From sequence record PZ809289.1: a stretch of 64,000 bases of DNA, one strand, 5' to 3'. Shown piece after piece: positions 4,163 to 56,620 of the stretch. This DNA is from a phage. The position numbers and the translations under genes were made by a program. The stretch's first letter is position 1, and each line of letters begins with the position of its first letter. Below the pieces are notes generated by a model that saw nothing but the letters and a program-made list of their open reading frames with translations, was not told where the DNA came from and made no database searches.

Positions 4163-4210
4163 TAGAGTCTCCGATGAATGGGATAAGGAGCCGAAGCTCC
4201 TTGATAATTC

Positions 4211-4218
4211 TATTTATA
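4211..4218 (-). promoter_or_regulatory. Late promoter TATAAATA upstream of gene 20
   Basis: tatttata on plus strand. Confidence 0.6.
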
Positions 4219-4219
4219 C

Positions 4220-4711
4220 TCATTCCCACCAATCGATAGCGAACGTAGATTCGAAAGTTTCTACCTCGTTGTTGCTGTCCCAATCCATCTGGACTTCACC
4301 AACGTTAGTAGGCCATAAGCCGTAAATTGTAACTTCTTTGGTCACAGTCTTGCCGTCACGATGGAACTGGCGAACTACTGCTTGTTTCTTATATTCTGCA
4401 GGTGCTGCACCGGTAATTTCATTGGTCATACCGTGACAGAGATTCTGCCAATCGACAATTGCTTGACGGGTGTCATGTGCATCATCGTTATAAATGGTAA
4501 TGGTCCAATCATCAAACGTACGGTCACCGGCTACGTTAATTTTACGGTTCATGTAGCCAACCGGTACTTTTTCTACAATGCCTGCCGGCATAGGTGCTGC
4601 TTTACATTTAAAGCTAAAGTTTTTACCCAGAAATGGAATTTCCACTTCGAAAAGGTTAGGGCGTGCAAAGTCACCTGACTCAAACGCACGAGTGATATCT
4701 GTCAACTCCAT
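4220..4711 (-). CDS. 19: Tail tube protein gp19
   Basis: 163 aa, same length as T4 gp19; synteny. Confidence 0.9.
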   Translation of the reverse strand: MELTDITRAFESGDFARPNLFEVEIPFLGKNFSFKCKAAPMPAGIVEKVPVGYMNRKINVAGDRTFDDWTITIYNDDAHDTRQAIVDWQNLCHGMTNEITGAAPAEYKKQAVVRQFHRDGKTVTKEVTIYGLWPTNVGEVQMDWDSNNEVETFESTFAIDWWE

Positions 4712-4763
4712 GGGATGCCTCTTAAGTCAGTTCCTGGACACACCAGGAACGTTCTGATTAATT

Positions 4764-4771
4764 TATTTATA
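4764..4771 (-). promoter_or_regulatory. Late promoter TATAAATA upstream of gene 19
   Basis: tatttata on plus strand. Confidence 0.6.
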
Positions 4772-4848
4772 ACAGTTGATAAATCATATTCCTAAAGAAT
4801 AATCAATCCCAGGCGCAATTCTACGTGATGTACGCTGTAACCAAACTC

Positions 4849-4880
4849 ATGGTATAATGGTTTTAGGTTCTTTATATTAC
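4849..4880 (+). promoter_or_regulatory. Extended -10 promoter-like element on plus strand inside late-gene cluster
   Basis: ATGGTATAATGGTTTTAGGTTCTTTA; would read antisense through the HNH gene. Confidence 0.3.
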
Positions 4881-4918
4881 AGCCTGGGATAATAGATTAT
4901 ACTAATAATATAATTTAT

Positions 4919-5575
4919 TTAGGATAGTAAGTCCCATAAGTCTATTGAACTAGACTTACTTTTAGCTCTATTGGATTCCCAAGTGATTATTTCTAAATTT
5001 GATAATTGTCCAATTATCTCTGCTGGGATATGGTTATAGAACCCATAAGCTACTGAAACCTTATGGTCTAATTGGTAAGCACCTTCAACTCCACATAACC
5101 CTATTTTATCTGCATTTTCCCAAGCCATCCATTCATCTTTACAAGCATAAGTAACAGCTCTAACCTTTGCTGCGTAGGCAAAGTACTCTGATTTATTAGG
5201 GTTCCATCTTGGATGGTTTTCACCTTGCATATGAGGTAGAGTTTTACCTTTATTAGCTTTACCGTGGGTGTTACCTATAAGAGCTTCGTGACGCCTACAA
5301 GGATAACATACATCGGTATTTCTAGCAATCCTTTGTTTGAATTCTGTGCCACATTTATCGCAGATACATTGAACTTCTTTATTAGAACCATCCTTTAAAT
5401 CAGAAACTTTTGCTCGAATAGTTTGGCACTTATGCCCATGCTTCGGTGCTCCTAGAGGTTCCAACTCATACCCTAAGTCTAAGAAATAACTGTAATTGTT
5501 AGTATTTATTTTTACATCAACAAATTTAGTAATAATCACTTTAGAAATCCTTGCGCGTATTGTGTATACGCGCAT
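4919..5575 (-). CDS. Free-standing HNH-family homing endonuclease (mob-like) inserted between genes 19 and 18
   Basis: 218 aa; N-terminal Cys cluster (CICDKCGTEF...CYPCRRH) and C-terminal HNH/HNN-like motif (QLDHKVS...SNLEIITWESNRAKS); absent at this position in T4. Confidence 0.7.
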   Translation of the reverse strand: MRVYTIRARISKVIITKFVDVKINTNNYSYFLDLGYELEPLGAPKHGHKCQTIRAKVSDLKDGSNKEVQCICDKCGTEFKQRIARNTDVCYPCRRHEALIGNTHGKANKGKTLPHMQGENHPRWNPNKSEYFAYAAKVRAVTYACKDEWMAWENADKIGLCGVEGAYQLDHKVSVAYGFYNHIPAEIIGQLSNLEIITWESNRAKSKSSSIDLWDLLS

Positions 5576-5603
5576 TATACCATAAAGCTTAGAGCAAGTA
5601 AAC

Positions 5604-7586
5604 TTAAACTAGTGGTCCAATCAACTCGTCAAAATCTGCACCGGTAGAAGTAGCTACGAAATTAAGAGTGATATAATTTATCGATCTCGCCGGTTTGATG
5701 TATATATTAGCAATAAACTCGTTACGGTCGATAACCGCAGGGGTGTTCACTGTAGTATCACAAACCACACGTCCTTCATAAATCCCACCAAGTGCCTTAA
5801 TACCATCTAAGTACTGAGAAACTTCCATACGGAAGCTTGAACGAGTGAAGTTGTCGTTCAATTCAAACAGTTTATATTTAGAGGCATCACCGATATTTTT
5901 CTTAAGCATGTTGAACAGACGGCGAACGTTAATATGGTCCATCGGAGATGGAACTTTAGTTGCAGTCTTATCACCAAACAATACGAAACCATCGCCACCA
6001 GCAAAACCAACAACTGGGTTAATAGCTTCTTGGTACATGCGGTCACGTTGAGCTTGACGTGGTTCAATTGCCAATTTCAGAACGTTAAGAATCTGGCCAC
6101 GGTTATAACCTGCCGGGGACATCCAAGGCTGAGAAACATCATCTGTACGCGCACACAAACCAGCCATATCAGCGGCCAGAGGCACCCAACGGTTTACGTC
6201 ATTATATTTGTCATACTGATATTTATAGTTACCATCAATAGCAGCATAAGTGGTGCTAATGTTCATGTTGTTGGTATCGAAAGTACCTGCACCGGTACGC
6301 CAGTCGATAAGATTATCTACTGCACGAGTCAATGGAACGTTAACCAACAGTCCTTTAGGAGGAGAAATAAATGCCAAGCAATCCTGACGTTCATCAGCAA
6401 TACTAACAACGTGTTTCTGGACGGTAGAAGCAACTTCATCACCTTCACCGGCAACGGCACCAGCAATCAAAAGGTTAATATGGAGTGCTTCACGGTCGGC
6501 AAACAAATCCCAACCCTGCATCAAATCACTCGCAGTAACCTGATCGTTAGCAGATACACCACCCATAAGATTAATGATACCACTGAAGCCTTTAGGCCAG
6601 TTCAAAGAGGTAGCAAAAATATAGTTAGAAGTACCTTTAGCGAAATAGTCGTCAAGATAAATGTTATTACCGTAAACGTCTTTTTCACCTTCTTTGGTAG
6701 AAAGTACGACAGATTCTACGATAGCGCCATCACGACGAACAATAATTGCGTATTGGTCATCTGTTTGCGGGCCGTAGTTAAATACTGCCTTGGCAATAGA
6801 AGCACGGGTACCACCGCCAGGATAAATATCCAGCATTTTAGAAGAACCGACATCATAAGCTGCTTTAGAAACAATTTCTACTTCTAAGGTGCTGCCAATT
6901 TCACCAGGATAAAGAGCGACCACGCCAGGCATACCAAACTGTTTAAGAGACGCTTGGAATTCTAGGGAAGTAATAGCTTCTTCACTGTTCTCTGCTTCGG
7001 TCAAAAGAATACCGGAATCGGTTACGATTTTACCAACGGTAATAGTACCAGAAACACCTGAAGAGGCAGAAGTTACTTCAGCAGTCCATGCCGGGCCGAG
7101 GTTCGGATACTGGTTTAAAGAACGTGCATAAGCAATAATTTTTGCTGATGGGATAAACACGGAAAGAATTTTACCATCCGTATCTACAGAAGTCACACGA
7201 CCTTCAGATTCAACAACAGTCTGGTTATATTTGATATTAATTTTATCGCCTACCGCATAGTTAGAACCTGCAGTAGTAATAGTGGTTTGGACGTTACCCG
7301 CTACCGGAGACGCGTTTTTAGCGAATTCACGGTTAACAACACGAACAGTACGAAGGTCGTTACCATACTGGAGGAAGTTCATACCCGACATGAAGTAATC
7401 AGCAACTTCGTTATTAGGACCTCCAAATAAGTCGACCAGTTCAACTTCATTAGTAATCTGAGTTACCTGGAAAGCAGGGCCCCACTGGAATTTACCAACC
7501 AGCGCTGCACGACCCGTTGCGTTACGAACGACAGTACTCTGTACGGACGTTTCTTTGAGCTCAATGCCCGGTGATAATAAAGACAT
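5604..7586 (-). CDS. 18: Tail sheath protein gp18
   Basis: 660 aa; MSLLSPGIELKETSVQSTVV...RDGAIVESVVLSTK...NFVATSTGADFDEL matches T4 gp18. Confidence 0.9.
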   Translation of the reverse strand: MSLLSPGIELKETSVQSTVVRNATGRAALVGKFQWGPAFQVTQITNEVELVDLFGGPNNEVADYFMSGMNFLQYGNDLRTVRVVNREFAKNASPVAGNVQTTITTAGSNYAVGDKINIKYNQTVVESEGRVTSVDTDGKILSVFIPSAKIIAYARSLNQYPNLGPAWTAEVTSASSGVSGTITVGKIVTDSGILLTEAENSEEAITSLEFQASLKQFGMPGVVALYPGEIGSTLEVEIVSKAAYDVGSSKMLDIYPGGGTRASIAKAVFNYGPQTDDQYAIIVRRDGAIVESVVLSTKEGEKDVYGNNIYLDDYFAKGTSNYIFATSLNWPKGFSGIINLMGGVSANDQVTASDLMQGWDLFADREALHINLLIAGAVAGEGDEVASTVQKHVVSIADERQDCLAFISPPKGLLVNVPLTRAVDNLIDWRTGAGTFDTNNMNISTTYAAIDGNYKYQYDKYNDVNRWVPLAADMAGLCARTDDVSQPWMSPAGYNRGQILNVLKLAIEPRQAQRDRMYQEAINPVVGFAGGDGFVLFGDKTATKVPSPMDHINVRRLFNMLKKNIGDASKYKLFELNDNFTRSSFRMEVSQYLDGIKALGGIYEGRVVCDTTVNTPAVIDRNEFIANIYIKPARSINYITLNFVATSTGADFDELIGPLV

Positions 7587-10831: not shown

Positions 10832-11605
10832 TTAATCATCTAAAAAAGCATCATCAAATGCTGTAGGAGGAGCATCCTCTCCTCGTCCATTAATTACAAC
10901 ATAAGGATGTACGAATTCCGCCGCTTCAGCATTAATCTCATTGACCTCTTCATATTGAATGTCGGAGATATCAGCCAATCCGTCGATATTCTTAACAGGC
11001 ATTAAATCAAGCTCACTAAACTCAGGGATATTAATACCTTCATTTCTCTGTAATTCAGGGCGAAGTTCTTCACCATTGTAAATGAACTTGGTAGCGGTGA
11101 TGCGCCGCTGGACGTTAGCTCCTACTTGATAGAATGGGTCGTAAGGTTGTACCCAGTTAATTTCGAATAGGCTGTTGTCCATTGGGAAATAAATCAAATC
11201 ACCTGAAACAGGTTCAGTGCCATTGCATTGATGTTTAAAAAGGTTAGGGTTAATTGTGATTGTTACTTCATCATTAACCATCATACCGAACTTACTGAAA
11301 TAAGTATTGTCACCGGAATAACCTTCAAAGGAATCCAAATAACCTGCAAATTTCCAGGCTTTAGTAAATTTGTTCTGAAGGTCTTCGCCAAATAGCTGGT
11401 CTGGATTAACGTATTCACGTGGTATATAATAAAGCTCAATACCACGCATTTGAATAGACTCAGCAACTAAAGCATCAGCCAATGTTTGGGTATTCTCATG
11501 CTTGTAGAAGTTGACGAACAGATTCATTATTTCAGTTTCGTTCGTGTTAGCATAGCCAGTATTATTTTCCAGCTTGGCAAATAAACTCGAATCGAAAGTA
11601 GCCAT
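10832..11605 (-). CDS. 14: Neck protein gp14
   Basis: 257 aa; synteny. Confidence 0.8.
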
Positions 11606-11607
11606 AA

Positions 11608-12543
11608 TTATCCAATTAAAATAGGTGTCGGTGGGTCGAGTAAATCTAATTCTTCGCGAAGGCGTTCTTTTTCTAAACGAGCTTCTTCAATCAATCGAAT
11701 ACCATCTACAGTGGTTCCACCCGCAAGTTGCATGCCTTGGTGTTTGGCCAAAATATTACCATTGACTTCTTTAACCAATGCCGTCGCATAATCTTTGACC
11801 CAACGGTTATTATATGAACCATCTTGCAAACCAAGGTCTTCACCTGCCCTCATACCTGAAATACGACGAGCCGGGTTATCCCAAATAGCTCCGGGGCTCC
11901 ATTCATTTTCGTCGCACCCACCAGAGGCATATCCATATCCTGCGGTATTTCCTACCATAGAATCGACCCCATTAAAAGAGCGAGTATAAACTTCAATTAC
12001 AATAAAATCGCCTTTAACAAAGTTACCCATTACCTTCAACTGTTCAGTGGCATCGTTATACCAATAATCAGGCAATGGAACCAAAAGGTCCTGCATCATA
12101 GAACGATATTGCATTAATTGTGTAAAATACCCGAGGTCAGCACCAAAGGCATTAGGCCCAAAGCTGTTACAAGAAGTTCCAAGACCGCCGTTAATACCAG
12201 CTAGGCCTAATACAAAATCAGTAAACCATGGATAAGTCGCTTGGCCATCCATAGATGTTAAAGAACCTACATTAGTTCTTAAAATTTGTGTTACTGCAAA
12301 TATATTACGGCCTTTAAGGTCAAATACGCCGTTACGGAATTTTTCTTCGTCATCATGGCCTATATAAAAAGCCTGATAACCTTTGTTATAGCCGTTATAA
12401 TGATACTCACCGTAGAGCTCCAGGGCGCGCTGGATGCAATCGTATACTTGGTCTGTAGTTACTTCAATATTCGTAATCGGTGCACCCAGGCGGCGCAGGA
12501 TTGCGTCCTTGAGTTGCTTAGGGTTATATGATTCACTTGCCAT
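11608..12543 (-). CDS. 13: Neck protein gp13
   Basis: 311 aa; synteny. Confidence 0.8.
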
Positions 12544-12564
12544 GGTTTATTCCTCTAATAACCG

Positions 12565-12572
12565 TATTTATA
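12565..12572 (-). promoter_or_regulatory. Late promoter TATAAATA upstream of gene 13
   Basis: tatttata on plus strand. Confidence 0.55.
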
Positions 12573-12574
12573 GC

Positions 12575-12597
12575 AAAAAAGGGCCGAAGCCCTTTTA
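12575..12597. terminator. Bidirectional hairpin terminator between wac and gene 13
   Basis: A6-GGGCCGAAGCCC-T4. Confidence 0.5.
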
Positions 12598-14187
12598 TTA
12601 TGGTGCTGGGTTTAAAGTCACAAAATCTGACAATAGCACCCACGCATTATCAACAAGAACATATGGAAGTCCATCAGCAACTGGAGCCACTGGTGGACGT
12701 TTAGCAAGTTCAGTTTCTAATGCAGTGATTTTATCTTCTGCTGTAGTAACTCTAGAAGTTAAAGCTGCCACATTACCATCGGTAACAACTAAATCAGCTT
12801 TAACGGTCCCTATTTCAGTAGAAACGTTAGGAACTTCGGTCCACGTAGCATTACGACGAGCATAAAGCTTACCATCGGAAGGGGCATCATTCAACTTACC
12901 TAACATCTGGGTTTCTAAAGAAGTAACCGCGTTAATAAGACCACGTTCTTCTACAGTAGTACCGTTAGGGTTTGTCCCGTCAACCTTATTGGTGAGTTTA
13001 AGTAAAGTACCCTTAATACCGGATTGGTTATTTCCAATTTCTACTTGAATATCCTGGATAGATGAAGTAGATTGGTTTGCTTGGATAATAACGTCATTTA
13101 AACGCTTATTAATGGTCCCAGCTGCCGGAGATACTTCACTACCTAAACGGCGGTTGATATCAGTAACTTGGAAACGTAAGCCATCACTTGAACTAACACC
13201 CACTATGGTTTTAAGGTCATTTACATCAGTACGAAGACCGCTTAAACGTCCATTAATAGAAGTAGGAGTTGATTCAGAACCTATTTGGGTTTCAATTGAT
13301 GTTACACGAGGTTTTAAATCAACGTTGACTGAATTTTCTAGGGTAAGAGTTTTGCTTTCTAAAGTAGTTACTCGGTCCTTTATAGGCATACCGGAGAAAT
13401 CAATATTAGTCTTAATTTCGTCGATAGATGTATTGAAATTAATTGCAGCCGTTTCTAATACAGAAATTCGGGTATAAGCCTGTTGTTTACCTACCGTATC
13501 GGAATGGGGCCCGAGTTCAGCACGAATTTCATTTAATTTAATACCTAGTTGCCCGACGTCAGAATCTTCATAATTCCTTTCAAGGGTATCAATGCGAAGA
13601 CGATGGTCGACCAATTGAGTGGTATTATCAATGATGCGACGTTTCATACCGGTGGCTTCGCTGGTTTCACCAGGAGGCAACGGATTGCCATTTATATCCT
13701 GGTTTTCATAATGACCTATTTCGGTTTTAAGAAGAACAATATTTTCACGTACAGTTAAATATGGGCCATCTTGTAAAGGGTCATGGTAACCAACGTCTTC
13801 TTTTAGGTGGTCTAAATTTATGGTTAAATTGTTTAGCCCAGTAGTGGTTTCGCCTTCTACTCTCTTAAGCTCTACGATATCAACACGGTTTTTCTCAATT
13901 TGTTGGATGACGGAAATATCCGTAGCCATTTCTAAGGCATCATTGATATTATTAACGTTTTCTACCAGTTCGTTAACTTTATCTGCGGTTTTCAAATCAT
14001 TCGCATCAAGAGCTTCAACGTTTTTCTGAACTCCTAAAGCAGCAGCGTTCAAATTACCTTCATTGCCGTATTTTGTTTTTGCTGCAGACATACAATCACC
14101 CTCGCGTATCCATTGGATACGCTTTTGAGGAGCATCAGGTACGCCGTCAACAAATGGTAACTCACTAAGTTCCAATTTGTTAATCAT
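12598..14187 (-). CDS. wac: Fibritin (whisker) Wac
   Basis: 529 aa; N-terminal ELPFVDGVPDAPQKRIQWI and C-terminal foldon-like ...YVLVDNAWVLLSDF resemble T4 Wac. Confidence 0.85.
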   Translation of the reverse strand: MINKLELSELPFVDGVPDAPQKRIQWIREGDCMSAAKTKYGNEGNLNAAALGVQKNVEALDANDLKTADKVNELVENVNNINDALEMATDISVIQQIEKNRVDIVELKRVEGETTTGLNNLTINLDHLKEDVGYHDPLQDGPYLTVRENIVLLKTEIGHYENQDINGNPLPPGETSEATGMKRRIIDNTTQLVDHRLRIDTLERNYEDSDVGQLGIKLNEIRAELGPHSDTVGKQQAYTRISVLETAAINFNTSIDEIKTNIDFSGMPIKDRVTTLESKTLTLENSVNVDLKPRVTSIETQIGSESTPTSINGRLSGLRTDVNDLKTIVGVSSSDGLRFQVTDINRRLGSEVSPAAGTINKRLNDVIIQANQSTSSIQDIQVEIGNNQSGIKGTLLKLTNKVDGTNPNGTTVEERGLINAVTSLETQMLGKLNDAPSDGKLYARRNATWTEVPNVSTEIGTVKADLVVTDGNVAALTSRVTTAEDKITALETELAKRPPVAPVADGLPYVLVDNAWVLLSDFVTLNPAP

Positions 14188-33799: not shown

Positions 33800-33870
33800 G
33801 GCCCTGTAGCTGGACGGTCGAGCGAGCGACTCATAATCGCTGGATGGTGGTTCGATTCCACCCAGGGCCA
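33800..33870 (+). tRNA. tRNA with CAU anticodon (Met/Ile2-type)
   Basis: Hand-folded cloverleaf: acceptor GGCCCTG/CAGGGCC, anticodon stem AGCGA/TCGCT with loop CTCATAA, T-arm GGTGG-TTCGATT-CCACC. Confidence 0.65.
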
Positions 33871-34582: not shown

Positions 34583-34657
34583 GTCCCGCTGGTGTAATGG
34601 ATAGCATACGATCCTTCTAAGTTTGCGGTCCTGGTTCGATCCCAGGGCGGGATACCA
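34583..34657 (+). tRNA. tRNA-Arg (anticodon UCU)
   Basis: Acceptor GTCCCGC/GCGGGAT + A + CCA, T-arm CCTGG-TTCGATC-CCAGG, anticodon loop CTTCTAA. Confidence 0.7.
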
Positions 34658-53305: not shown

Positions 53306-53866
53306 ATGATTATTGAAACAACTGAATTGTTTGGCGAACTGTCCGCTGAAGTAGTTAATAACGCAATTGAGCTTTCACAAGAAGACGATAAAATCGTACT
53401 GACTATCGCTGATATTAAACCGCTTTATGATTTAATGGTTTTAGATAGACACGATTATCTTAACGGTCGGGCTAGTGCTCCTATCGATATCAATGATGAT
53501 ATGTTTGCCTATATCTATAAAAATGAAACCGGGTTTAATCTGGAAAATGGTATTGAATGTCTGAGCATCAGCGATTCTGATAAATTCTTTGATTGTATTT
53601 TCAAACTGTTCCAGGAAGAATGCAAGCCGGAAGTTGAATGGAAAGTCCCTGGCCAAGATGCCGTGATTCGTTCTAGTGAAACCTTTGAAGGTGATGAAGA
53701 AGAACTGAATTATGATACTGAATTAACCGTGTATCAACATCAGGGCCGTGATTTGTTATCCTTGACCCAAAGACACGATGGTGAAAGTGAAGTGGTATTT
53801 ACTAAAGACGAACTAAAAGTTTTAGTCTCTTATCTGAACTCTGTTATCCCAACTATGAACTCTTAA
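53306..53866 (+). CDS. Acidic protein
   Basis: 186 aa, strongly Asp/Glu-rich. Confidence 0.5.
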   Translation: MIIETTELFGELSAEVVNNAIELSQEDDKIVLTIADIKPLYDLMVLDRHDYLNGRASAPIDINDDMFAYIYKNETGFNLENGIECLSISDSDKFFDCIFKLFQEECKPEVEWKVPGQDAVIRSSETFEGDEEELNYDTELTVYQHQGRDLLSLTQRHDGESEVVFTKDELKVLVSYLNSVIPTMNS

Positions 53867-53876
53867 GGAAAATATT

Positions 53877-54329
53877 ATGATTATCAATGCAAACTCTTGG
53901 CACGCTAAACTTCATGACCGTTTTTATGACAGTCATTCTCGACCGCACTCTTTATGTGCTTACTTCTGGAAAATGGTTTGGGCTTGTTTTGCTTGTGCTG
54001 TTGTTGCAGGTAGTACGCTTTTTGGATTAACTGTTGCAGGTGTTGGTGTATTAGAGCATTTCTTTGTATTAAGTACCCCTGTTCTGTTGAGTCTAGGGTT
54101 TGTTTTAGGATTGGTTGCAATAGCTCTTATTATTGCGCTATCCATTGGTTTGGCATTAGGTGTGATGAATTTACACGCATGGTATGATGCACGTAGAGAA
54201 GAAAAGGAATGGCAACGTATTCAAGCTGAGCGTGAAGGCCGAGAAACTAAAGAAAATATCGTTATTCAATACATTAAAGCTCGTAAATCTAAGGTCTGTC
54301 CGGTAATCCACTTCGAGGACAAAGAATGA
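53877..54329 (+). CDS. Membrane protein
   Basis: 150 aa with about three hydrophobic helices; stop overlaps next start (ATGA). Confidence 0.5.
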   Translation: MIINANSWHAKLHDRFYDSHSRPHSLCAYFWKMVWACFACAVVAGSTLFGLTVAGVGVLEHFFVLSTPVLLSLGFVLGLVAIALIIALSIGLALGVMNLHAWYDARREEKEWQRIQAEREGRETKENIVIQYIKARKSKVCPVIHFEDKE

Positions 54330-55336
54330 GAACAGTTATGAAAGGCTACTTCGGTAGCCACCTTTATGGAACAAGTACTCCGGAATCTGACGTCGATTTT
54401 AAAGAAATCTTTGTTCCACATCCGCGTGATATTCTGTTAGGTACGGCTATGAACCATACCAACCTGAATACGAATAACACTGCTTCCAAAAACACTAAAG
54501 ATGATGTTGACCATGAGCTTTACAGCCTGAAATATTTCTTTAAACTAGCGGCTGAAGGCGAAACCGTTGCTCTGGACATGATTCATACTCCACCTGAACT
54601 GGTGGTTAAATCTGATTTACCTGATGTATGGAAATTTATCCAAGACAATCGTTCTCGGTTCTATACGACTAACATGAAAGCCTATTTAGGGTACGTCCGT
54701 AAGCAAGCTTCTAAATATGGTGTTAAGGGTTCTCGACTAGCTGCACTGCGTGGTGTACTGGCTATTGTTAACCAGATTCCTGAACAGTGGGTCGATTATC
54801 AAGAAGATGGTTCGACTAAACAACGTCGTACTAAGGTAGAAGATATTAAACATCGACTCCCTGAAAATGAGTTCTGTGAATGGGTATTCCATAACCATGA
54901 GAAAACAGGCCCTCAAACGTTCTATACTGTTCTAGGACGTAAGTACCAAACTACTTTGTCTTTAATCGAGCTCAAGCAATCTCTGAATAAGCTTGATGCT
55001 GAATATGGCGAACGTGCTCGTAAGGCTGAAGCTAATGAAGGTATTGACTGGAAAGCTCTGAGCCATGCTTATCGGGCTGGATATCAATTGTTGGAAATCT
55101 ACCAAACAGGCGACCTGGTATTCCCATTGCGCGAAGCCTCTATCATTAAGCTGATTAAGGCCGGTGAACTTCCATTTAAAGAGGTCCAAGAACTTCTTGA
55201 AGACACTGTTGATTTAGTCGAAGTACTGGCTATCCAGGCTCATAAGAACGGTATGCCTGCTAAGGTAGATATGAAGTTCTGGGACAAGTTTGTTGAAGAG
55301 GTATACCTTGACAACCACAACTCTTATTATCGATAA
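54326..55336 (+). CDS. Nucleotidyltransferase-fold protein (Pol-beta superfamily)
   Basis: 336 aa; N-terminal GSHLYGTSTPESDVDF fits hG[GS]x9-13Dh[DE] with a later acidic residue (VALDMIH). Confidence 0.55.
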   Translation: MRTVMKGYFGSHLYGTSTPESDVDFKEIFVPHPRDILLGTAMNHTNLNTNNTASKNTKDDVDHELYSLKYFFKLAAEGETVALDMIHTPPELVVKSDLPDVWKFIQDNRSRFYTTNMKAYLGYVRKQASKYGVKGSRLAALRGVLAIVNQIPEQWVDYQEDGSTKQRRTKVEDIKHRLPENEFCEWVFHNHEKTGPQTFYTVLGRKYQTTLSLIELKQSLNKLDAEYGERARKAEANEGIDWKALSHAYRAGYQLLEIYQTGDLVFPLREASIIKLIKAGELPFKEVQELLEDTVDLVEVLAIQAHKNGMPAKVDMKFWDKFVEEVYLDNHNSYYR

Positions 55337-55343
55337 CGAAGAA

Positions 55344-55532
55344 ATGAAGGTCTTTTTATCATATGGAAGACCCCATAAAACCCGACGTTGGTATCTTGAA
55401 GCTGTCTGTAAAGAAACCGGACGTCGAGTCAATATCAAGTACGTGTGCAAACCTACGCCTAAACAGACAAGACAATTTGTTAACTGGGCTATAAATGATA
55501 TACGCTTCCATAATTTTTGGAGCGCAATTTAG
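55344..55532 (+). CDS. Small basic protein
   Basis: 62 aa from ATG 55344; followed by terminator. Confidence 0.4.
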   Translation: MKVFLSYGRPHKTRRWYLEAVCKETGRRVNIKYVCKPTPKQTRQFVNWAINDIRFHNFWSAI

Positions 55533-55553
55533 GAACCTTCGGGTTCCTTTTTT
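55532..55553 (+). terminator. Rho-independent terminator
   Basis: GGAACC-TTCG-GGTTCC + T6. Confidence 0.6.
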
Positions 55554-55573
55554 GGGTTTAGTGCAAAAAAAGA

Positions 55574-55602
55574 GTTTACACCTTCGTAGAGCATGTTATT
55601 AT
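55574..55602 (+). promoter_or_regulatory. Early promoter cassette
   Basis: GTTTAC, 17 bp, TATTAT. Confidence 0.5.
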
Positions 55603-55639
55603 GGACCTATCAAATCTACTGAGTGAAATGGAGAATATA

Positions 55640-56620
55640 ATGTTAACTATCAAAATCAACAAAGGTATCTATCGCGGTAATGTAATCTCCGGTACGTTCA
55701 TGAGTTCAGGTAAAACCTGGTTCCCTAATAAAATTCATGAATCCGAAGCTCACCTCGGTGATGGTAAGGTATTTGTACAGATTGATGGTGTTGAACGTGG
55801 TGTATGGGTGTTCAAATGTGACGTTGAAATGGAAGGTGCTGAAGCTCCTGCAGTTGTTACTGAATCCGCTGAAGAAATGAAACATCGCATTAACAAACGT
55901 TTTAAAGTAATGAACATGATGACTAGTGGAATCATCGATGGTAAAATTCGTTCCCTTATCATCTCTGGTGCCGCAGGTATTGGTAAAACATATTCTTTGG
56001 ATAAAGCATTACAGAATGCCCACGAAAATGAAACTATCGAATATAAATCAATCAACGGAAAGATTAGTGGAATCGGTCTTTACGAGCAGCTTTGGAATAA
56101 CCGCGGCCCTAATAGTGTTCTTCTTATTGATGATGTTGATGTATTCTCTGATATGGATATCCTGAACCTGTTAAAAGCAGCATTGGATACTGGTGAAAAA
56201 CGTAAGGTGTGCTGGAGCACTTCAAGTTCTTATCTTGATGATAAAAATATCGATAAAGAATTTGAGTATGAAGGCACCATCGTGTTCATCACCAACGTTG
56301 ATATTGACCGTGAATTAGAGCGTGGAACTAAACTTGCTCCACACCTCCAGGCTTTAGTATCTCGTTCAGTTTACTTAGACCTCGGAGTTCACTCTAACGA
56401 AGAGATTATGGTTCGTGTTGAAGACGTTATCCTGTCCACTGATATGATGCAAAACCGTGGTCTGACTGATGCCGAGACTTACCAAGCTTTAGCATGGATG
56501 AAGGCTAATGTATCTCGTCTTCGTAACGTATCATTACGTACAGCTCTTTATCTGGCGGACTTCATTGCCACCGATAAAAATGACTGGAGCGAAATCGCTG
56601 AAGTTACACTTCTGAAATAA
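55640..56620 (+). CDS. AAA+ family ATPase
   Basis: Walker A GAAGIGKTY, Walker B VLLIDDVD; ATG 55640 after conserved leader. Confidence 0.6.
   Translation: MLTIKINKGIYRGNVISGTFMSSGKTWFPNKIHESEAHLGDGKVFVQIDGVERGVWVFKCDVEMEGAEAPAVVTESAEEMKHRINKRFKVMNMMTSGIIDGKIRSLIISGAAGIGKTYSLDKALQNAHENETIEYKSINGKISGIGLYEQLWNNRGPNSVLLIDDVDVFSDMDILNLLKAALDTGEKRKVCWSTSSSYLDDKNIDKEFEYEGTIVFITNVDIDRELERGTKLAPHLQALVSRSVYLDLGVHSNEEIMVRVEDVILSTDMMQNRGLTDAETYQALAWMKANVSRLRNVSLRTALYLADFIATDKNDWSEIAEVTLLK

Follow-up and report, generated by a model that had tools for sequence, protein, structure and literature searches.

The DNA analysed here, referred to as the window, is a 64,000-nucleotide stretch from a phage (sequence record PZ809289.1), and the gene under study is a 336-aa open reading frame (ORF) encoding a nucleotidyltransferase (NTase) with a Pol-beta signature. 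The 3.7-kb region around it shares 97% DNA identity with Enterobacteria phages vB_EcoM_IME281 and QL01 (genus Dhakavirus, Tevenvirinae) and corresponds to the early region that extends from mobD to nrdC in T4. RefSeq annotates the genes, in order, as y05I-like hypothetical protein, membrane protein, "nucleotidyltransferase (NrdC.11)", "NrdC.10", DUF7203 protein, NrdC.8, and NrdC.6, and the order in T4 is mobD.1, mobD (an HNH homing endonuclease), nrdC.11 (336 aa), nrdC.10, nrdC.9, and nrdC.8. A sequence-only reading of the window had recognized the Pol-beta signature, described the NTase as coupled to the membrane protein encoded upstream, with an AAA+ ATPase after the terminator, and regarded the family as not assignable. 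We describe here that the NTase is almost certainly the orthologue of T4 NrdC.11 and a member of the RlaP family of RNA-ligase-associating Pol-beta nucleotidyltransferases, and that RNA or tRNA end repair is its best-supported role. The features of the locus are collected in Table 1.

The NTase is 83% identical to T4 NrdC.11 over its full length and is found in the same gene order, and RefSeq labels the IME281 copy "NrdC.11 ... nucleotidyltransferase." It passes the threshold of the Pfam family RlaP (PF10127, "RNA repair pathway DNA polymerase beta family"), with 43.7 bits against a cutoff of 23 and an E value of 3.6e-11. This match is partial, with NTase residues 8 to 134 aligned to positions 25 to 142 of the 249 profile positions and the C-terminal half of the profile left unaligned; the same partial match is obtained for T4 NrdC.11 (46.6 bits). 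The protein also matches phrog_388 ("nucleotidyltransferase") with an E value of 3.5e-132, and among 1.84 billion cluster representatives searched exhaustively with HMMER, 3208 related clusters were found, the best 150 of which are nearly all full length, with about 300 to 350 aa and 36 to 54% identity. The family is therefore assignable, and the assignment is already present in RefSeq and in the literature; matches of nrdC.11 to the nucleotidyltransferases of COG3541 and of nrdC.10 to AAA were noted as early as 2006 (PMC1524935). Homologues of the NTase, the membrane protein, and the small ORF that follows the NTase gene were identified by tblastn in 1547, 712, and 212 phage records, respectively, and hence all three are real genes rather than chance ORFs.

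The signature itself lies near the N terminus, in residues 9 to 25 (FGSHLYGTSTPESDVDF). In an alignment of 76 NTase sequences with identities down to 34%, residues G10, G15, S21, D22, D24, Y131, R230, K243, H247, R250, P267, and G280 are invariant, with S11, D60, D62, and D84 being nearly invariant. When the NTase was compared profile to profile with canonical bacterial RlaPs, its residues 5 to 132 aligned, and D62, with a conservation of at least 90%, fell on the third catalytic aspartate of the RlaPs; judged from these alignments, D62 is most likely the third catalytic carboxylate, with D84 being conserved too. The Pol-beta catalytic set, that is, the G-S motif (G10-S11) and three conserved carboxylates (D22/D24 and D62), is thus present.

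An AlphaFold2 model built from the 76-sequence alignment, with a predicted local distance difference test (pLDDT) score of 91.3, contains the Pol-beta-type alpha/beta core (residues ~1 to 112) that had been expected from the signature, followed by two long helices (118 to 149), a beta-rich insert (~150 to 212), and a helical C-terminal domain (213 to 335). The earlier expectation that some 250 mostly helical residues follow the core therefore holds for the two long helices and the C-terminal domain but not for the insert, which is also the least conserved stretch of the protein. The C-terminal helical bundle carries the conserved basic residues R230, K243, H247, and R250. The domain layout described for PfRlaP, with a C-terminal helical domain that forms a basic cleft with the NTase domain, may thus be present, the beta-rich insert being an extra element. 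No RlaP structure, including the PfRlaP crystal structure, was found in the PDB copy searched, and no PDB relatives were detected by sequence with the NTase protein, the 76-sequence profile, or a canonical bacterial RlaP as the query. The closest solved structure is HalB (PDB 9dbh), at 13% identity, and no cGAS, CD-NTase, or CCA-adding enzyme is among the fold matches listed. We also noticed that the invariant Tyr131 (about nucleotides 54716 to 54718) is located in the lowest-confidence loop of the model.

Table 1. Genes and regulatory elements at the nrdC.11 locus (positions are those of the window)
Feature	Coordinates	Strand	Details
Membrane protein gene	53877-54329	+	150 aa; phrog_944, E=5.9e-57
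NTase gene, almost certainly the nrdC.11 orthologue; long-form RlaP-family (PF10127) Pol-beta nucleotidyltransferase	54326-55336	+	336 aa
Small basic protein gene	55344-55532	+	62 aa; DUF7279 / phrog_8921
Intrinsic terminator	55531-55558	+	hairpin 55531-55548, then T-run
T4-early-type sigma-70 promoter for nrdC.10	55567-55602	+	A-run, TTTACA, 16-nt spacer, TG-extended TATTAT
nrdC.10 orthologue, predicted AAA+ ATPase	55640-56620	+	326 aa (from the ATG at 55640); phrog_1250, E=2.2e-162

What members of this family do has recently been reported by Carruthers, Fatma, and Huang (bioRxiv preprint, December 2025), who studied two Pseudomonas enzymes, PfRlaP and PaRlaP, which are encoded between rtcB and rtcA (PMC12776372). 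Both add one or two nucleoside monophosphates (NMPs) of any base, and deoxy-NMPs (dNMPs) as well, to the 3'-OH of RNA, with a preference for Mn2+, and neither acts on DNA or protein. The preferred substrate is the broken anticodon-loop end of a cleaved-tRNA mimic. When a tRNA-Asp mimic lacking one anticodon-loop nucleotide was treated with RlaP and GTP before ligation, aminoacylation was significantly raised; the same mimic without RlaP treatment reached <10% of the intact control. The PfRlaP structure shows an NTase domain at the N terminus and a helical domain at the C terminus, and its cleft is conserved and partly basic. In the family network of that study, T4 NrdC.11 is named as part of cluster 5 but was not assayed, while the assayed enzymes belong to cluster 1a (PMC12776372). 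A comparative-genomics review had predicted that RlaP restores nucleotides cut away by RloC-type RNases before ligation (PMC7824862).

The genomic surroundings of NTase relatives point in the same direction. We compared 78 loci from IMG/VR and 80 from cellular genomes (the latter numbered L082 to L161), recording the Pfam families of flanking ORFs (phage loci, 3 ORFs per side of at least 120 aa; cellular loci, 2 per side of at least 150 aa). In the 32 phage loci with at most 47% NTase identity, the commonest neighbours were ATP-dependent ligase domains (8), RtcB (4), T4-type RNA ligase (3), and AAA_33 proteins of the polynucleotide kinase type (3), with a PNKP phosphatase domain, Metallophos, and HD also being present. 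The cellular relatives (~75 loci; Desulfobacterales, Nitrospirota, Alphaproteobacteria, and some archaeal metagenome-assembled genomes) are 35 to 51% identical to the NTase over essentially its full length. Their commonest neighbour, in 14 loci, is a second RlaP gene directly downstream, which matches the full Pfam profile (E values down to 1e-81); AAA_33 (5), the Pnkp ligase domain (4), Metallophos (3), Hen1 (2), and Ro60/TROVE (2) follow. From this census, it is the NrdC.11 clade itself, and not just the family at large, that lives in RNA-repair neighbourhoods. In the nearest genome, IME281, RnlA and PseT are encoded at 33.7 and 36.5 kb, respectively, and the 5'-phosphate/3'-OH chemistry of this pair, unlike that of RtcB, fits the RlaP product (PMC12776372). 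Association with RNA-repair genes is thus found for the clade but not locally.

In the tandem arrangements, which are often seen in bacterial genomes and have Pnkp/Hen1 and Ro60 genes nearby, a long RlaP of the NrdC.11 type is followed by a canonical full-length RlaP, for example, at 5001-5972 and 5976-6743 in L111 and at 5001-5984 and 5981-6802 in L132. Such pairs of two different RlaPs suggest a division of labour, of which we noticed no mention in two papers on RlaP. No second RlaP paralogue was found in the window.

The repair role is favoured because the RlaP family assignment, the activity of the bacterial relatives, and the repair-gene context of the relatives agree, and among the roles that the sequence-only reading had listed, RNA or tRNA repair against anticodon nucleases is the one that the evidence favours. 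In the mechanism that we propose, the N-terminal Pol-beta core (G10-S11, D22, D24, and D62) would bind a nucleoside triphosphate (NTP) and two divalent metal ions, and a broken RNA would receive one or two NMPs at its 3'-OH in a template-independent reaction. The enzyme would act after end healing by PseT, a polynucleotide kinase and 3'-phosphatase, and before sealing by RNA ligase 1, replacing nucleotides that RloC-type host anticodon nucleases trim away after the tRNA cut, so that ligation could yield a functional tRNA. We infer that the phage enzyme shares the activity of the Pseudomonas RlaPs and that its target is nuclease-trimmed tRNA. By analogy with the assayed enzymes, template-independent addition of one or two nucleotides to an RNA 3'-OH is the probable activity. 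That it naturally serves to rebuild, before PseT and Rnl1 complete the repair, tRNA ends that RloC-like anticodon nucleases have trimmed is a more tentative proposal, for which the chances are slightly below even. For the explanation as a whole, in which an RlaP of the NrdC.11 type repairs broken RNA before ligation, we estimate a probability of roughly 0.6.

Several points weigh against this explanation. The assayed RlaPs belong to another cluster of the family than the NrdC.11 clade, and the alignment with canonical RlaPs is limited to the N-terminal ~130 residues; since the C-terminal half and the beta-rich insert are specific to the clade, the NTase substrate could differ from that of RlaP. 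The nrdC.11 gene is ~85 kb from rnlA and pseT and is not in an operon with them. T4 mutants with reduced genomes that had lost it, among other genes, were viable, and hence no nrdC.11 phenotype is known on laboratory hosts (PMC9825161). As RlaP adds any of the four NMPs, just a fraction of the repaired tRNA would be correct (PMC12776372). Finally, HalB, the closest solved structure, makes oligo-dA and does not repair RNA.

An alternative that we consider unlikely is that the NTase serves host takeover by tailing intact host RNAs, thereby blocking their charging or changing their stability, with no damage being repaired. The observation that, in total E. coli RNA, full-length tRNA and rRNA become labelled by bacterial RlaPs, which show little NTP specificity, would fit such a function, but the same enzymes favour the broken end of the cleaved-tRNA mimic over the acceptor end (PMC12776372). 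Similarly, the gene is located in a T4 early/middle region that is rich in host-takeover genes (alc, regB, pin, and the y05I-like gene) and has no adjoining repair gene in this phage; however, its clade relatives are found in Pnkp/Hen1, RtcB, and RNA-ligase repair operons in both phages and cells, and no toxin-antitoxin-like partner is present.

It is very unlikely that the NTase is instead a HalB-like synthase, making oligonucleotides or oligodeoxynucleotides without a template, either free or protein primed and possibly on Tyr131, with a product that acts as a decoy to keep host HalA-type DNA-gated channels closed or that controls the adjacent membrane protein. No sequence match to HalB or HalA was obtained at E values of up to 10, and the best match to a PADLOC defence model (E=0.004) extends over a 17-residue motif alone. 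What speaks for this alternative is the position of HalB as the closest solved structure, together with the clade-invariant Tyr131, given that HalB primes oligo-dA on a tyrosine; the equivalence of the two residues is conjectural. Pfam places the NTase in RlaP, two assayed members of which (from Pseudomonas and another cluster) do not label DNA or protein, and the gene contexts of the relatives also argue against a HalB-like function. Furthermore, the membrane gene that would supply the partner is missing in T4, is separated from the NTase gene in close relatives by homing endonucleases, and does not occur in any distant relative.

A CD-NTase/cGAS-type synthase of a signalling nucleotide, or a decoy directed against a defence like cyclic oligonucleotide-based antiphage signalling (CBASS), is most improbable: beyond the shared Pol-beta superfamily fold, it had only the suggestion of the sequence-only reading in its favour, no CD-NTase match was found among the fold matches listed or in Pfam, NCBIfam, or PADLOC, and the neighbourhoods of the relatives consist of RNA repair genes, not of an effector and a cyclase. 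A small-molecule or antibiotic nucleotidyltransferase (ANT or kanamycin-NTase-like) or an MNT-type antitoxin deserves hardly any weight, since the NTP_transf_2, MntA, and PADLOC PDC-S09 matches cover just the 17-residue G-S...DxD motif and stay under their curated cutoffs (15 versus 21 bits and 15.2 versus 60 bits), while the RlaP threshold is passed; a HEPN toxin partner is also lacking, and no HEPN Rx4-6H motif is formed by the conserved basic residues. PolyA_pol head and CCA-adding families gave no Pfam or NCBIfam match to the NTase at E values of up to 0.1. Judged from these comparisons, the protein falls outside the CD-NTase/cGAS, CCA-adding/poly(A) polymerase, MNT/ANT, and Hailong HalA-HalB groups.

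The membrane protein contains one continuous hydrophobic stretch (residues ~26 to 102), long enough for about three helices; the three helices named in the earlier reading are compatible with this, the number being an estimate. Comparison with the PDB returned noise alone, with no match to HalA or any solved protein. The overlap of the NTase start codon with the TGA of the membrane gene (ATGA) was confirmed, but 4-nt overlaps are common in this region: counted from the annotated IME281 coordinates, 11 of 38 adjacent gene pairs have one. Most enterobacterial T4-like loci have a phrog_944 gene upstream of nrdC.11 at a distance of up to 2 kb, with only 23 to 38% identity outside Dhakavirus, and it abuts the NTase gene in some genera only. 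In T4, it is absent and mobD occupies the junction, and it is also absent from every locus with at most 47% NTase identity; in L005, whose NTase is 92% identical, an ORF with an HNH motif (4198-5001) separates the two genes. A functional coupling of the NTase and the membrane protein through the ATGA overlap was therefore rejected, on account of the routine nature of such overlaps, the endonuclease at the junction, and the absence of the gene from T4 and distant relatives. The two genes represent conserved synteny, which is not evidence of a two-gene system. As a separate observation, the junction (54326) is a recurrent insertion site for homing endonucleases of the HNH type, as seen with mobD in T4 (12430-13209, minus strand, of L002), in L005, and in phage NRG-P0074.

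The neighbour most tightly attached to nrdC.11 is the small ORF downstream, which is a genuine gene in the same transcription unit. As the sequence-only reading had stated, its product is basic (13 K+R versus 3 D+E), and it matches Pfam DUF7279 above the cutoff (E=9.2e-10) and phrog_8921 (E=5.8e-34). The 212 phage records with this ORF (37 to 100% identity by tblastn) are mostly from Klebsiella phages and Dhakaviruses, and the ORF is often unannotated, as it is in the nearest genomes, IME281 and QL01; a homologue search at the protein level returned 2 proteins. In 12 loci from several genera, the frame is free of stops, indels are multiples of three, and the start lies 8 to 11 nt past the NTase stop. 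A motif close to SYGRP...RRWYLEAVCRETGRR...KPT.KQ is exact in most of the 12, with slight differences in L016, L030, and L039. However, T4 and many other phages lack the small ORF, so it is at most an optional accessory of the NTase. The DUF7279 gene is probably a syntenic neighbour and not a demonstrated NTase component, although it may have an accessory role.

The stop codon of the small ORF is located at the foot of the terminator, which closes the nrdC.11/small-ORF unit. This element has a GC-rich 7-bp stem, a 4-nt TTCG loop, and a T-run and is the only terminator-like site between 53000 and 57200. The hairpin is kept in T4, in L028, and in a Serratia phage (L015), and the stems show compensatory changes between phage genera (GGAACC/GGTTCC, GGAGCC/GGCTCC, and GGGACC/GGTCCC). 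The terminator and the early promoter of the sequence-only reading are thus real. The promoter has TTTACA at 55575, a 16-nt spacer, and a TG-extended TATTAT ending at 55602, with an A-run before it, and is the best match in the region (10/12); the A-run, the -35 element, the extended -10 element, and the downstream GGAG-ATG are kept in T4 (terminator and promoter at 11312-11445, minus strand, of L002), L028, and L015.

Because it is preceded by this conserved terminator and early-type promoter, nrdC.10 is a separate transcription unit. The ATG at 55601, which is the start of the longest ORF, lies inside the -10 element of the promoter; the true start is the in-frame ATG at 55640 after GGAG, giving 326 aa, as supported by annotated homologues and by the alignment of phrog_1250 from residue 14 of the 55601 ORF. 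RefSeq notes the AAA+ gene as "NrdC.10." The Walker A (GAAGIGKTY) and Walker B (VLLIDDVD) motifs are present, and an AlphaFold2 model (pLDDT, 89.4) has an N-terminal beta domain (residues 1 to 64), an AAA+ core, and a helical lid. Foldseek returned 180 matches at E values of up to 0.001, the best 50 of which (E values of up to 1.3e-4) are AAA+ proteins; RuvB, RFC, ORC/Cdc6, Hda, and PspF are resembled about equally, dynein is also among the AAA+ matches listed, and the Pfam AAA_14 and AAA_22 matches are just under the cutoff. Judged from the model, NrdC.10 is an AAA+ protein that is not assignable to a specific subfamily, and thus the earlier assignment to AAA+ stands. In 37 T4-like loci, nrdC.11 is followed by this gene, which none of the distant loci shows. 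A partnership between the NTase and NrdC.10 is not supported, as nrdC.10 is transcribed as a conserved unit of its own and is missing from the distant loci.

In GenBank and UniRef, many homologues of NrdC.11 and NrdC.10 are entered as "thioredoxin," a name that has apparently spread from the locus label nrdC.x; a thioredoxin domain or fold is present in neither protein. Directly upstream of the membrane gene lies a gene (53306-53866, plus strand) whose product resembles a putative y05I-like transcription factor of T4, MobD.1, with matches to both of its Pfam domains and 32% identity to the T4 protein. About 20 kb upstream of the nrdC.11 locus, the phage carries genes for tRNA-Met (CAT; 33800-33870, plus strand) and tRNA-Arg (TCT; 34583-34657, plus strand).

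Databases and papers already contain the gene, the assignment of its family, and the hypothesis of a repair role, and the window adds no new kind of system. What is added here are the repair contexts of the relatives of the phage clade, often in tandem with a canonical RlaP in cellular genomes; the finding that the NTase is partnered by neither the membrane protein nor the AAA+ ATPase; and the tight attachment of a frequently unannotated DUF7279 gene to nrdC.11 in several genera. With conserved copies in more than 1500 sequenced phages, T4-like and related, nrdC.11 is of wider relevance: if its product restores nucleotides trimmed by RloC-type anticodon nucleases, it would complete the classic T4 tRNA-repair pathway of PseT and Rnl1 and would explain how these phages answer nucleases that evolved to defeat simple religation.

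Known systems can be compared with the locus. HalB, the nucleotidyltransferase of the Hailong defence system, has no detectable sequence relationship to the phage NTase, is ~217 aa long, forms tetramers, and carries out protein-primed synthesis of oligo-dA, and the phage membrane gene is neither conserved with the NTase nor a match to HalA. The bacterial RlaPs PfRlaP and PaRlaP share with the phage NTase the Pfam family, three conserved aspartates, and, judged from the model, probably the layout of an N-terminal Pol-beta NTase domain and a C-terminal helical domain that form a cleft, and the family is linked to RNA ligase, RtcB, and Pnkp repair genes. However, the phage protein belongs to cluster 5 and not to cluster 1a, is ~60 to 80 residues longer, with a beta-rich insert, aligns by profile over just the first ~130 residues, and is not encoded in an operon with a ligase. 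The closest counterpart is T4 NrdC.11 (NP_049709, "nucleotidyltransferase"; COG3541/PF10127), which has the same length and the same partial RlaP match and is encoded between the mobD.1/y05I-like gene and nrdC.10. The T4 locus differs in that mobD takes the place of the membrane gene directly upstream and that the DUF7279 ORF is lacking. Lastly, the PseT (Pnk) and RnlA pathway of T4 has been established experimentally for a single clean cut, and the nucleotide-restoring step of NrdC.11, whose gene is unlinked to those two, is hypothetical; this pathway, which counters PrrC and both enzymes of which are encoded by IME281, is nevertheless the biological setting that we propose for NrdC.11.

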